Origin: Candidatus Parcubacteria bacterium
GTDB lineage: Bacteria > Patescibacteriota > Minisyncoccia > SURF-38
NCBI GenBank assembly: GCA_003599335.1
Contig: QZJN01000010.1
Location: 1 to 57,328, forward strand
DNA length: 57,328 nucleotides
Reading direction: 5' to 3'
The translations under genes and the position numbers were made by a program. This document shows positions 100 through 29,211 of this stretch, piece after piece. How positions within the stretch are numbered: position 1 is the first letter of the stretch; each line of letters begins with the position of its first letter. The notes below the pieces were generated by a model, which made no database searches, had not been told where the DNA came from, and was given only the letters and a program-made list of their open reading frames with translations.

Positions 100-253
100 A
101 GGGAGCAAGCCAACTGCTTGGCTTGCGTGTGAGATGAGAATGCCACAGCGATGCGCGAGTTTTCCCGGCCGGAAAGGCGAGCGCCGCGAGGCGGGGCCGA
201 GAGAAATTTCCGTCAGAAAATTTACTCGTGGCCGAATCTCACCCCCACCGCCA
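100..253 (+). repeat. tRNA-3'-associated structured element, copy A, ending in a duplicate of the tRNA-Ser 3' end
   Basis: CGAATCTCACCCCCACCGC at 81-99 recurs at 233-251; 27 nt at 102-128 are identical to the reverse complement of 15037-15063. Confidence 0.85.
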
Positions 254-2779: not shown

Positions 2780-2866
2780 ATATAATAAAAGATATATTTT
2801 TAATGACTCCAAGCCACTAATATTGACAAAATCATAATTTTACATTAAAATATAATCATTAAACTT

Positions 2867-3595
2867 ATGAGTGTTTTTCAACCAGGTATGGGACCAACAC
2901 CAGAACAAATGGGCTTTAATCAAGAATCAACAAAAACTCCGGAAACAAAAGAAACATCCGGAGAAAAATTTGAACAAGCCCTTCTTGAAACTTTAAAAAA
3001 CTCAGCAATCGGAGCAAGACTTGAAAAAGAAGAAGGCAAAGAAGTTAAGGCGAAAACAAACCCGGATCAGGTTCAACTGTTAAACCTGCAAGAACTTGGA
3101 AAAGAAAAGGCTGGAGAGATTGAAGCCAAAGAAAAACTCAAAAGAGATTTAGATTCTATCACATCGGCATCTGGCGTGGAAGCGATTTTTGATTTTGATA
3201 AATCCGGGAAACTAAATGAGATATCTTTCGGGTTGGTAATAAAAAAAGCCGAGGGTAAAAAGCCGGCAGAAATATTGAAATTAGACGATGAAGAAAGAGC
3301 CAAAGAAGCAATCGAGGCCGCAAAAGCCCTGTCTTCAGAAAAAGAGGAAGGTAAATTCATGAATAGAATCCTTGATAAAAAAATTGAAGCTTTAAACGGA
3401 GAATATACAGAACTTGTAAACCAGCTTGATGCTTTATTTAAATCCCAGAAAGTTGGGGAAGAACTGCCGGCTCCCATACGCAGCGCCCTAAAACAGGAAA
3501 AATCAAGACAACGAATGCTTGAGGCTCAAATTGAAAGCCTGCAGCAAACAAAAAAGATGTTTGAAAAAAAAGAAGGTTCCGACCAAAAACAATAA
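2867..3595 (+). CDS. Hypothetical Glu/Lys-rich coiled-coil protein
   Basis: 242-aa ORF preceded by TTGACA-17-TAAAAT. Confidence 0.75.
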   Translation: MSVFQPGMGPTPEQMGFNQESTKTPETKETSGEKFEQALLETLKNSAIGARLEKEEGKEVKAKTNPDQVQLLNLQELGKEKAGEIEAKEKLKRDLDSITSASGVEAIFDFDKSGKLNEISFGLVIKKAEGKKPAEILKLDDEERAKEAIEAAKALSSEKEEGKFMNRILDKKIEALNGEYTELVNQLDALFKSQKVGEELPAPIRSALKQEKSRQRMLEAQIESLQQTKKMFEKKEGSDQKQ

Positions 3596-14448: not shown

Positions 14449-14897
14449 AAAAATTCGCAGGCTCTCAATCGGAGGAAATATCATATAACGATGAGGCCGC
14501 GGAACTGGCTCTGGCTTCTCGCGTAAAAACGCCGAGGGTCCAGGAAGACGTCTTGGCCGAAGAAGAAGGCCAATTAACTTTGGATGTTTACCAGACGCCA
14601 TCTGAAGTAATAATCAAATCAACCATAGCCGGAGTTGATCCAAATGATCTTGATATTTCTATAAACAACGATATGGTCACAATCCGCGGCACAAGACATA
14701 AAGACGAAGAAGTCGATTCGGAAGAATATTATTACCAGGAACTTTATTGGGGCTCTTTTTCAAGATCTGTCATTCTGCCGGTTGAAGTTGATGCCGATGA
14801 AGCCGAGGCTTCAATGAAAAACGGAATTTTAACCATAAAATTGCCGAAGCTTGATAAAGAAAAACATAGAAAACTAAAGGTAAAAAACCAAGGTTAA
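14427..14897 (+). CDS. Hsp20/alpha-crystallin small heat-shock protein
   Basis: WGSFSRSVILP, ASMKNGILTIKLPK. Confidence 0.92.
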   Translation: MAKKSFLEKFAGSQSEEISYNDEAAELALASRVKTPRVQEDVLAEEEGQLTLDVYQTPSEVIIKSTIAGVDPNDLDISINNDMVTIRGTRHKDEEVDSEEYYYQELYWGSFSRSVILPVEVDADEAEASMKNGILTIKLPKLDKEKHRKLKVKNQG

Positions 14898-14899
14898 TT

Positions 14900-14937
14900 A
14901 AACCAAAAACCTCCGAATTATCGGAGGTTTTTGGTTT
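14900..14937. terminator. Bidirectional intrinsic terminator
   Basis: AAACCAAAAACCTCCGA-ATTA-TCGGAGGTTTTTGGTTT. Confidence 0.8.
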
Positions 14938-14940
14938 TTA

Positions 14941-15068
14941 GTGGGCTGGGAGAGATTTGGTCACAACTCTTTTGTTTTAACAAAAGGTCGCGACCCCGCC
15001 TCGTCTGCAAAGCATGACTCCGGCATTCAAATCCCTACGCAAGCCAAGCAGTTGGCTTGCTCCAGATT
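14941..15068 (-). repeat. tRNA-3'-associated structured element, copy B, ending in a duplicate of the tRNA-Leu 3' end
   Basis: 14941-14959 matches 15069-15087 at 18/19; shares the 27-nt hairpin and CGAGGCGGGGYCGMGA with copy A. Confidence 0.85.
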
Positions 15069-15069
15069 G

Positions 15070-15152
15070 TGGGCGGGGAGAGATTTGAACTCTCACGAGA
15101 TTACTCTCACTAGCTCCTAAGGCTAGCGCGTCTGCCGTTCCGCCACCCGCCC
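15070..15152 (-). tRNA. tRNA-Leu (anticodon TAG)
   Basis: GGGCGGG/CCCGCCC acceptor; CTAGC-CTTAGGA-GCTAG anticodon arm; variable arm. Confidence 0.95.
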
Positions 15153-15281
15153 GTATAAATCATTATTACAGCTTAAATAAAGGCTGACAAATACTTGACT
15201 TTTTAGTATTTCTATGATAATATCATAACTGTTCATTTCGCTCTTTTCAAGTTCAAAATCCAAACACAAGAGAGGTGAAAA

Positions 15282-28867: not shown

Positions 28868-28939
28868 GCCGCGGTAGCTCAGTGGTAGAGCGCATGCCTG
28901 AAGAGCATGGCGTCGGGTGTTCGATTCACCCCCGCGGCA
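28868..28939 (+). tRNA. tRNA-Phe (anticodon GAA)
   Basis: GCCGCGG/CCGCGGC acceptor; CATGC-CTGAAGA-GCATG. Confidence 0.95.
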
Positions 28940-28946
28940 CAAAAAT

Positions 28947-29018
28947 CCGCCCGTAGCTCAATGGTAGAGCAGTTGCCTCTTAAGCAAACGGTTGTAGGTT
29001 CGAATCCTACCGGGCGGA
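28947..29018 (+). tRNA. tRNA-Lys (anticodon CTT)
   Basis: CCGCCCG/CGGGCGG acceptor; anticodon loop CTCTTAA. Confidence 0.93.
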
Positions 29019-29038
29019 CCGATTTTTAAGATTTGAAA

Positions 29039-29123
29039 GGGCAGGTGGTGGAATCGGCAGACACGTACGTTTGAGGGGCGTATGCCGCAAGGCGTGGGGG
29101 TTCAAATCCCCCCCTGCCCACCA
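29039..29123 (+). tRNA. tRNA-Leu (anticodon GAG)
   Basis: GGGCAGG/CCTGCCC acceptor; loop TTGAGGG; encoded CCA. Confidence 0.95.
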
Positions 29124-29134
29124 AGGAGAGTCAC

Positions 29135-29211
29135 GGACGGTTAGCTCAGTTGGCTAGAGCGTCTCGTTTACACCGAGAAGGTCGTAGGTTCGAGTCCTAC
29201 ACCGTCCACCA
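29135..29211 (+). tRNA. tRNA-Val (anticodon TAC)
   Basis: GGACGGT/ACCGTCC acceptor; TCTCG-TTTACAC-CGAGA; encoded CCA. Confidence 0.95.

Follow-up and report, generated by a model that had tools for sequence, protein, structure and literature searches.

A folded, gene-less element behind a tRNA-Leu gene of a Candidatus Parcubacteria bacterium carries inverted and direct copies of its own tRNA's tail

Introduction

Why should a stretch of DNA without a gene, lying behind a transfer RNA (tRNA) gene, repeat the end of that gene in both senses? The question is raised by a locus of a Candidatus Parcubacteria bacterium with a 0.69-Mb genome: an element at 14941-15068 on the minus strand of contig QZJN01000010.1 (assembly GCA_003599335.1), a stretch of 57,328 nucleotides (nt) that was analysed whole and is called the window hereafter, lies 3′ of the gene for tRNA-Leu(TAG). 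The ends of tRNA genes are classic landing sites of mobile DNA. The initial annotation, made from the sequence alone, had taken the element for the second of two copies in the window and had argued for selection on structure as opposed to a decayed attachment (att) scar. I found that the stretch is a genuine folded element that holds no gene and carries inverted and direct copies of its own tRNA's tail. That it belongs to a structured tRNA-trailer module which spreads horizontally is highly probable; as for the fuller account, I lean towards reading the region as one copy of a widespread non-coding structured module in the 3′ trailers of tRNA and transfer-messenger RNA (tmRNA) genes that works in the three steps set out in the Discussion.

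Results

Parts of the element in the window

The copy behind tRNA-Leu(TAG), copy B, and the copy behind tRNA-Ser(TGA), copy A, have the same parts in the same order. These parts, their surroundings, and the position of copy A are as follows.

15162-15190, minus strand: promoter-like site (TTGTCA, spacer of 17 nt, AATAAT, with TG) just 5′ of tRNA-Leu; consensus match only (consensus scan, 10/12)
15070-15152, minus strand: tRNA-Leu(TAG), class II, intact, the cognate tRNA of the element (ARAGORN; Rfam tRNA model, 57.6 bits)
15061-15068, minus strand: linker (8 nt) with short leader AATCTGGA; its CUGG pairs with CCAG of the tail in a 4-bp helix (minimum free energy fold)
15039-15060, minus strand: hairpin H1, GCAAGCCAACTGCTTGGCTTGC, stem of 9 bp and loop of 4 nt, the family signature; exact in both window copies
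15026-15038, minus strand: GT, 5′ strand of helix P1 AGGGATTTG (antisense to the T-loop and the T-stem 3′ strand; from the sequence), and AA junction; P1 pairs with 14959-14951 in the fold
14997-15025, minus strand: helix P2 (UGCC/GCG) around the conserved GGAG/CGAG internal loop, and variable hairpin P2a (fold)
14960-14996, minus strand: GG junction and helix P3 (GUCGCGA/UUGUGAC, two G-U pairs) with a variable inner hairpin on top (fold)
14941-14959, minus strand: tail CAAATCTCTCCCAGCCCAC, which repeats tRNA-Leu C56-A73 directly and adds one base (18/19 identical to the tRNA end); its first 9 nt are the P1 3′ strand
14900-14939, minus strand: terminator-like long A/T-flanked hairpin (CCTCCGA..TCGGAGG, then a T run), seen in the sequence
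100-253, plus strand: copy A behind tRNA-Ser(TGA) (12-98), with H1 at 105-126, antisense arm at 129-135, tail at 233-250, and then CCA (covariance model R1, 106.7 bits)

The sequence and the consensus scan give the order promoter-like site, tRNA-Leu, element, and hairpin with T run; the hairpin at 14900-14939 was not called by the terminator consensus scan, and its T run belongs to the stem. The 128-nt insert of copy B contains no open reading frame and no coding remnant. Across the window, only tRNAs matched Rfam at gathering thresholds, and permissive scans (expectation value E ≤ 10) of both copies, at 14880-15160 and 1-300, returned no credible family.

The longest string common to the two copies is the 27-mer GGAGCAAGCCAACTGCTTGGCTTGCGT, found at 102-128 (+) and 15063-15037 (-), exactly where the initial annotation had placed an identical 27-mer, and present twice in the whole 690,606-base genome; the 27-mer at 15034-15060, three bases off GGAGCAAGCCAACTGCTTGGCTTGCGT, had no match in 100 shuffles of the window. 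The remaining likenesses that had been pointed out also held when the sequences were compared: 10 of the 11 positions of AGGGATTTGAA (15036-15026) are complementary to the tRNA-Leu(TAG) T-loop and T-stem, CGAGGCGGGGTCGCGA agrees with copy A in 14 of 16, and the tail (14959-14941) repeats the tRNA-Leu end in 18 of 19, while the corresponding repeat of the tRNA-Ser end in copy A is perfect (18/18). The lone difference between tail and tRNA in copy B (C to A) creates the CUGG/CCAG helix with the linker in the fold. In longer family members, the position of the leader holds a copy of the 5′ acceptor strand of the tRNA.

The fold is conserved by covariation

The case for selection on structure had been made to depend on further copies and on covariation in a larger alignment, and both were found. 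Two alignments were used: A1, of 30 copies, was made with MAFFT and was not fitted to a model, while A2 comprised 75 distinct copies aligned by the model, and being fitted is biased in the model's favour. In A1, 87.5% of 989 cells were in standard pairs, compared to 27-40% with the partners slid by 1-3 columns. Both sides changed in 22 of the 33 pairs, double-change cells numbered 126 as opposed to 38 ± 5.4 in shuffled alignments, and none of 500 shuffles reached the covariation score. A2 gave corresponding values of 87.2% paired, and 311 double-change cells compared to 91 ± 9.6 in shuffles.

H1 cells were paired throughout (100%), with both-side changes in 4/9 pairs in A1 and 8/9 pairs in A2, and with variants carrying paired changes such as GCGAGCC..GGCTCGC, GCAAGCA..TGCTTGC, and GAAAGCC..GGCTTTC. 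The three bases of P2 alternate between GCC/GGC, GGC/GCC, GAC/GUC, and ACC/GGU; one of its pairs covaried in A2 as CG (44), GC (15), and UA (3), and its inner pair was C-G in 68 of 69 cells. Pairing is preserved between the P3 stem of copy B, GGTCGCGA/TTGTGACC, and the stem GGCCGAGA/CTCGTGGCC to which it had been matched in copy A, and for each of the seven P3 pairs some family members carry changes on both strands, among the 30 copies as well as the 75. Two P3 pairs were G-U in 42/75 and 28/75 copies. Read on the tRNA-sense strand, G-U cells (150) exceeded A-C cells (44), and the folding strand is therefore the tRNA-sense strand.

The consensus architecture was recovered from either window copy folded alone: copy B reached -53.9 kcal/mol (z = -5.2, equalled by 0/200 shuffles) and copy A -62.9 kcal/mol (z = -2.6, equalled by 2/200 shuffles). 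About one third of the copies, copy A included, have tandem G-A/A-G in place of two P1 pairs, with GAUGAGAA instead of GAUUCGAA. A hammerhead-like reading of the GAUGAGAA junction was dropped on inspection, and Rfam gave no match for it. Loops were often GCGNAGC or GCGNNAGC, with 32 and 14 occurrences on the sense strand and 2 and 2 on the antisense strand; motifs of these types are described as extraordinarily stable DNA mini-hairpins in the available text of a 2026 review (PMC13037366). Such loops do not decide between folding as RNA and folding as DNA.

Further copies in the same genome

Covariance model R1 was built from the alignment A1 and a hand-drawn structure, and model R2 from the scaffold only, using alignment A3. 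R1 found five matches in the genome: copies B (116 bits) and A, a third 3′ of the tmRNA gene (97.3 bits), a fourth 3′ of tRNA-Arg(TCG) (78.6 bits), and a fifth (70.2 bits) whose tail is the 3′ end of tRNA-Leu(CAA), 1.33 kb upstream. A repeat of the gene's own 3′ end within 400 nt occurs at 4 of the 49 tRNA and tmRNA genes of the genome, the fifth copy lying farther away. R2, run unfiltered over the whole window, scored the two copies at 83 and 78 bits, followed at ~13 bits by tRNA T-arms; of the 15 tRNA genes in the window only these two loci scored with either model, and the other 13 lack the element, as had been reported.

The gap between tRNA-Leu(CAA) and the fifth element (G000:C14:54401-55942; G, C, and L denote genomes, contigs, and loci in this study) contains terminator-like hairpins, a hydrophobic, oppositely oriented open reading frame of 277 amino acids, and, directly before the element, a degenerate tRNA-end copy, and looks like a later insertion that separated the tRNA from its element. 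The same tRNA-Ser(TGA) sequence ends two contigs, C10 (the window, 1-99) and C11 (1-88); the assembly probably broke at this tRNA or its element. Downstream of copy A, an ATG at 265 (+), preceded by GGGGAAAAA, follows 12 nt past the CCA (251-253), and judging from these letters the gene 3′ of copy A may be readable from the tRNA-Ser transcript. Elsewhere in the window, a tight cluster of four tRNAs (Phe, Lys, Leu-GAG, and Val; 28868-29211, plus strand) is followed by a terminator-like hairpin and carries no element.

A constant scaffold with arms matched to the tRNA

The copies have in common a scaffold, consisting of H1, the GGAG/CGAG internal loop, and the three-way junction of P1, P2, and P3, and three arms that match the tRNA: an acceptor-like leader, the arm antisense to the T-loop and T-stem 3′ strand, and the direct copy of positions 56/57 to 73. 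The arms matched their own tRNA far more often than tRNAs of other isotypes:

Antisense arm, at least 8/9 complementary: own tRNA 34/56; other isotypes 8.5% of 2822 comparisons
Leader, at least 7/8 complementary: own tRNA 16/56; other isotypes 2.6%
Tail, at least 12/13 identical: own tRNA 37/54; other isotypes 0%

The left edge of the direct copy is sharp: tRNA identity is 0.10-0.19 over positions 54-55, rises to 0.65 at C56, and stands at 0.90 from 57 onwards. The right edge is fuzzy past the discriminator. This boundary analysis covered 31 of 53 elements, the other 22 having been dropped due to fewer than 8 matches to the tRNA in the last 10 tail bases or a mis-set helix search. In several cases the antisense arm matches the tRNA better than it matches the element's own tail (L007, L013, L025, and L026).

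The same scaffold is found together with differing arms. In the set of 75 copies, scaffold identity reached at least 80% in 23 pairs, and 19 of these 23 had tails of less than 75% identity. Copy A and a copy from Elusimicrobia have scaffolds that are 83% identical, and 86% identity was found between a copy in a record labelled Uhrbacteria and one labelled Gammaproteobacteria. Scaffolds of 80-90% identity thus stand behind different tRNAs with different arms, and it follows that the element spreads and is retargeted. Other cores, of the GGGTT and AAAGATTTT types, carry the same H1 and arms, and an optional spacer motif, GAACGAAGTGA, follows the tRNA in 10/75 copies as opposed to 20/2000 control windows.

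Distribution across genomes

Overall, 401 genomes of the same class, 151 of the phylum, and 151 of Burkholderiales were scanned, plus a few others; the window's genome is the sole representative of its family and order in this set. The H1 pattern (22 nt, up to 3 mismatches) occurred in 65/401 genomes of the class, and the reversed control pattern in none. In the loci returned, sense-oriented H1 lies between a few and ~120 nt 3′ of tRNA genes of nearly any isotype, and is followed by the T-arm antisense arm and, 90-170 nt on, by the copy of the tRNA's own 3′ end. R1 matched in 11/151 genomes of the phylum sample, the window's own among them; one of these genomes had 11 R1 matches of which none was caught by the H1 pattern, and the counts based on that pattern are therefore underestimates.

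Scanning for exact GCRAGCCAACTGCTTGGCTYGC returned at least 119 stretches in a collection with one genome per species and at least 120 in metagenomes. Among the matches listed, named records were mostly metagenome-assembled genomes of the Patescibacteria group, with other labels being Elusimicrobia, Burkholderiales/Betaproteobacteria, Gammaproteobacteria, Verrucomicrobia, Bdellovibrionales, and Simkaniaceae. Full elements accompany the exact hairpin in records labelled Elusimicrobia, Burkholderiales, and Verrucomicrobia, among others. In 80 loci returned from named genomes, R1 found 97 matches at E ≤ 0.001. Placement was assessed on a set of 83, namely the 81 best R1 matches and two from a viral locus (L093): for 62 of the 83, a tRNA or tmRNA on the same strand ended within 150 nt upstream, representing 15 isotypes including tRNA-Sec. 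The family thus extends past Leu and Ser tRNAs and past Patescibacteria. Two Burkholderiales genomes of 5.2 and 4.6 Mb had 3 R1 matches each and an Elusimicrobium genome of 1.7 Mb had 15, and on account of these carriers the family truly reaches beyond ultra-small bacteria.

A description of this family was not found in the available text of the literature on Patescibacteria tRNA-gene elements, on structured RNA of the Candidate Phyla Radiation, and on tRNA-like downstream elements, and the H1 string was not found in the literature either.

Comparison with known systems

By architecture, the closest known systems are the RNAs RtT and sX4; the likeness is one of architecture, and the comparisons with covariance models gave no evidence of homology with RtT. 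The RtT family is enterobacterial. Around tyrT/tyrV of Escherichia coli K-12, four RtT units (RF00391, rttR) scored 133-138 bits with the Rfam model. Like the present elements, they directly follow the 3′ end of a same-strand tRNA gene, with tandem units possible. In their closing helix, GGGGAAGGAU/AUCCUUCCCC, the T-loop and T-stem 3′ strand of tRNA-Tyr is present twice, once inverted and once direct, a GAGAA junction follows the antisense arm exactly as in copy A, the free 3′ tail is the tRNA's last 19 nt and ends in CCACCA, and the annotated rttR RNA of 171 nt runs from 8 nt past tyrV to the CCA of the tail. Comparing the RtT structure line with the folds and pair counts confirmed that the window copies have both a closing helix and a free tail. 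In contrast, RtT lacks H1 and is unlike in its interior, and at the E. coli locus examined it stands by tRNA-Tyr genes only, whereas the present family stands by 15 isotypes in several phyla.

Membership in RtT was rejected: no match to either copy was obtained at E ≤ 10, let alone at the gathering score of 45 bits, and R1 scored the RtT units at 2-3 bits. A shared core was likewise rejected, as R2 aligned the RtT arms only and skipped 83 nt, with scores of 9.7-13.6 bits that equal the T-arm background of the window. For the tyrT-rttR region, the available text of one study (10.1101/2024.07.17.603846) reports raised coverage of exonuclease-resistant DNA under stress, and calls the mode of action of rttR unknown. 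The accessible part of another (PMC3318445) states that rttR is encoded by one tyrT repeat unit, crediting Bosl and Kersten 1991.

The consensus of sX4 (RF02223), an RNA of Xanthomonas and other Proteobacteria, runs from a class II tRNA-Ser through a spacer and a hairpin to a G-rich arm, which Rfam pairs with the 3′ strand of the T-stem. The sX4 hairpin can be aligned to H1 of a family member from a betaproteobacterium (L121); a difference is that the model ends before core and tail. Here, too, membership was rejected: copy A together with its tRNA-Ser reached 15.3 bits and L121 28.4 bits, compared to a gathering score of 70, and copy B gave no match. None of 151 Burkholderiales genomes (a tally that includes one unpublished genome, G575) reached the sX4 cut-off, and R1 had no match in the 15 best sX4-like loci. 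Xanthomonas sX4, with an expected length of 156 nt, ran at 280-300 nt on northern blots according to Table 1 of PMC3300014, as far as its available text goes; such a length would fit the tRNA plus a whole unit.

In two Burkholderiales genomes (L360 in G633 and L365 in G606), a complete unit follows an sX4-like match behind tRNA-Ser(CGA); it contains GAUGAGAA and GGUUCGAC and ends in an exact repeat of the tRNA end. These units look like RtT and lack H1, and the one at L365 is tandem; they obtained no score from R1, nor from the Rfam RtT model at E ≤ 0.01.

Folded single-strand recombination sites are known from the attP of CTX phage, which is recombined by XerCD, and from the attC of integrons. 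The likeness to these lies in a single strand that folds into a stem mimicking the duplex target, in arms that conserve structure over sequence, and in a target that is regenerated on insertion, with serial or tandem insertion being possible. A stem imitating a duplex target was found in the present element as well: the end of the tRNA gene recurs, direct and inverted, in P1 and the leader helix. The differences are that the target is the end of a tRNA gene and not dif or attI, that no recombinase is linked, and that the unit measures 110-180 nt.

Attachment sites of tRNA islands resemble the element in their direct repeat from T-loop to tRNA 3′ end, in an identity block that begins within the T-loop, and in an adjoining insertion hotspot. 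The inserts of both window copies lie between direct tRNA 3′ repeats of this kind (18/19 and 18/18). No integrase or remnant of one was found by the repeats, the tyrosine recombinase matches of the genome being on contigs C6 and C3; the element also differs in having no other gene remnant, a conserved covarying fold between the repeats, and an extra inverted copy of the target. As regards the proposed opposition between structure and att scar, selection on structure was upheld by the further copies and the covariation, while the opposition itself fell away: the direct tRNA-end repeat continues to be explained best as a mark left by an insertion process, so that an element can be structured and att-like at once.

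A miniature inverted-repeat transposable element was rejected as a match because the inverted arms vary with the tRNA and the duplication, which takes in 17-19 nt of the tRNA, has no sharply defined right end. RNAs and processing signals in tRNA trailers are exemplified by plant mitochondrial t-elements and by 3'ETS-leuZ of E. coli. Their likeness is that the RNA derives from the tRNA transcription unit and that an acceptor/T-arm-like helix could guide processing enzymes, while the present element differs in having a large junction instead of a T-loop and, in copy B, an acceptor-like helix of only 4 bp.

Gain, loss, and the search for a mover

Tandem units were found at several loci (L024, with two nearly identical units, L016, L030, L043, L135, and L146), and truncated left ends and solitary H1 occur. 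The element was retained at tRNA-Ala(GGC) in two species of one genus (L021 and L022). Five genomes of the same genus were searched for the orthologous tRNA-Ala locus and two were inspected (G104 and G296); the element was absent from both.

Larger versions carrying genes were looked for by extending three loci with H1 and no tail (L090-L092), and were rejected: all three are either cut-off left ends or H1 by itself; ordinary genes come next, and a second tRNA-end copy is absent. Solitary H1 was seen at L091 (G010:C3, behind tRNA-Arg(GCG)), L017, and L028; one solitary H1 stands in a longer A/T-flanked hairpin right after a tRNA, and others have no adjoining tRNA on the same strand.

A scan of 2.9 million viral contigs for the H1 pattern gave no match. 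Of 24 viral loci picked out by a 16-nt core pattern, only one, L093, has elements: at 2837-3222 (-), at least two in tandem with divergent H1 and no adjoining tRNA called, which may be host DNA at the edge of a prophage. Since blastn against plasmid and phage records returned no match either, a phage or plasmid origin was rejected.

Three protein families (RVT_1, Y1_Tnp, and tyrosine recombinase) were searched for in five complete or near-complete genomes rich in copies. Tyrosine recombinase was present in all five, in three of them as a single copy; as such recombinases are near-universal in bacteria, this result is uninformative. In the genome with 12 copies, the only tyrosine recombinase match (G010:C3:2722-3297) ends ~150 nt before an element-bearing tRNA-Arg(TCT), a proximity that is probably coincidental; in two other genomes (G021 and G248) the recombinase is not near the elements. 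A stop of reverse transcription at a modified T-loop base was rejected as the cause of the boundary, given that the copy starts at 56/57 and spans position 58, and that two copy-rich genomes lack reverse transcriptase. The window itself has an RVT_1 match (48374-48829, plus strand; 56 bits) in an open frame of 310 amino acids, with a second RVT_1 on contig C6.

Discussion

How the module may work

The reading I lean towards involves three steps. First, the module would be co-transcribed with tRNA-Leu from the tRNA promoter, as suggested by two flanking features, the promoter-like site (15190-15162) and the hairpin with its T run (14939-14900), and would then be freed by ordinary tRNA 3′-end processing, by analogy with RtT; co-transcription and processing in the manner of RtT seem probable on that analogy. 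The antisense arm and the leader would sequester the spare tRNA tail in the folded sense strand, and with this decoy tail locked in P1, the upstream tRNA would mature normally. Second, the unit, lying between two direct copies of the tRNA end, could be gained, lost, and amplified by recombination at the repeat. Tandem arrays were observed, and the absence from the orthologous tRNA site in two species of the same genus suggests loss or gain. Third, the scaffold would move between tRNA genes and genomes, acquiring arms to match each new tRNA. The preferred route for this last step would be strand exchange at 56|57, catalysed by a host-encoded or trans-acting recombinase. One partner would be the tRNA gene, and the other the module in a folded single-stranded or circular form, with a stem that resembles the duplex end of the tRNA gene. 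This specific folded-site route is a tentative proposal and, taken for itself, rather unlikely.

Several results weigh against this account. Two loci with different tRNAs (L029 and L033) have one common leader that fits neither tRNA well, and the tails of three others (L005, L137, and L196) are tRNA-like only in part, in the T-part. The rewriting of three separate arms lacks an explanation, and the RNA product and the excised or circular form are postulated. In many copies (among them L005, L007, L009, L031, L146, and L175) the element is separated from its tRNA by a terminator-like hairpin, which argues against obligatory co-transcription. No alignable empty site was found at the orthologous tRNA-Ala loci, where the DNA 3′ of the tRNA is wholly different between species, leaving the junction undefined. 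RVT_1 is absent from two of the five copy-rich genomes (with 12 H1 sites and 11 model matches, respectively) and Y1_Tnp from three, and a mobilising enzyme was not found among the three families tested, IS110, TnpB, and serine recombinases not having been searched. Regarding the distribution, the "Gammaproteobacteria" record L117 (G545) is a 1.1-Mb genome with 7 elements and the "Bdellovibrionales" record L183 (G548) a 0.8-Mb genome with 1, and both labels may be wrong. Lastly, the conserved G-U pairs and internal loops could equally fit an RNA with a cellular function.

Other explanations

This last point leads to the strongest of the alternatives, a host-beneficial trailer RNA of the RtT kind, made from the tRNA precursor, having an antisense arm and a decoy tail that would target either the cognate tRNA or enzymes dealing with tRNA T-arms and 3′ ends, for processing control, buffering, or as a decoy, with H1 serving as a protein handle. 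H1 and the GGAG/CGAG loop are conserved in sequence in distant genomes, the G-U pairs of P3 keep their positions in 42/75 and 28/75 copies, and the antisense arm often fits the tRNA over the element's own tail (the four loci named above), all of which speaks for such a function, as do the location of the window copy within a tRNA transcription unit, the retention at the same tRNA-Ala in two species of a genus, and the detection of RtT and sX4 as RNAs, as described in the available text of PMC3300014 and PMC6337395. However, the distribution is patchy, with 65/401 and 11/151 genomes and 5/49 tRNA and tmRNA genes in the present genome, the same tRNA locus is empty in two species of one genus, tandem and truncated copies occur, terminators between tRNA and element are common, and near-identical scaffolds at unrelated tRNAs suit spread over an ancient function. 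I regard a host RNA of this kind as possible, if somewhat unlikely.

A bolder version of the spreading module is a mobile element without a protein gene but with programmable arms: a constant scaffold would be copied into any tRNA or tmRNA trailer and its arms rewritten from the target, by host functions or by its own catalytic fold, and RtT and sX4 would be products of the same process of insertion at 56|57. I consider this improbable.

A catalytic fold is also at the centre of a further alternative, in which a small self-cleaving or self-ligating ribozyme at the junction of P3 and the tRNA tail (56|57) would make or capture tRNA 3′ fragments. The compact three-way junction with conserved unpaired purines, the very sharp boundary of the tRNA copy at 56/57, and the fact that no associated protein gene would be needed are in its favour. 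Scanning 14880-15160 and 1-300 with the ribozyme models of Rfam release 15, on the other hand, gave no match to any known ribozyme family on either copy at E ≤ 10, and several cores (the GGGTT and AAAGATTTT types) go with the same H1 and arms, which is unexpected for a catalytic core, so that a ribozyme seems very unlikely.

The weakest alternative takes the region for what decay has left of a larger insertion, namely a prophage or an island with the tRNA 3′ end as att, and the similarity of copies A and B for a leftover; it is extremely improbable and is largely refuted by the covariation on A1 and A2: although the tRNA-end direct repeat is as at att sites, tRNA loci are insertion hotspots, as with the 277-amino-acid frame between tRNA-Leu(CAA) and its element, and an NYN-like open reading frame (named from sequence reading only) lies 3′ of tRNA-Ala in G296, a covarying, conserved scaffold across hundreds of copies, 128 nt free of coding remnants, and one scaffold behind 15 tRNA isotypes all speak against it.

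Significance

For genome annotation, spare tRNA tails of this kind are a hazard, as they can be mistaken for att scars or tRNA fragments, and the repeats may break assemblies, the shared tRNA-Ser at the ends of C10 and C11 being a case in point. For the biology of the family, the finding is that small structured units without a gene of their own, with near-identical scaffolds and target-matched arms, occur from ultra-small bacteria to 5-Mb Burkholderiales. This raises the questions of what makes, moves, and retargets these units, and of what effect they have on tRNA maturation. The architectural link to long-known and unexplained RNAs, RtT of E. coli and sX4 of Xanthomonas, makes the question testable in cultivable bacteria.

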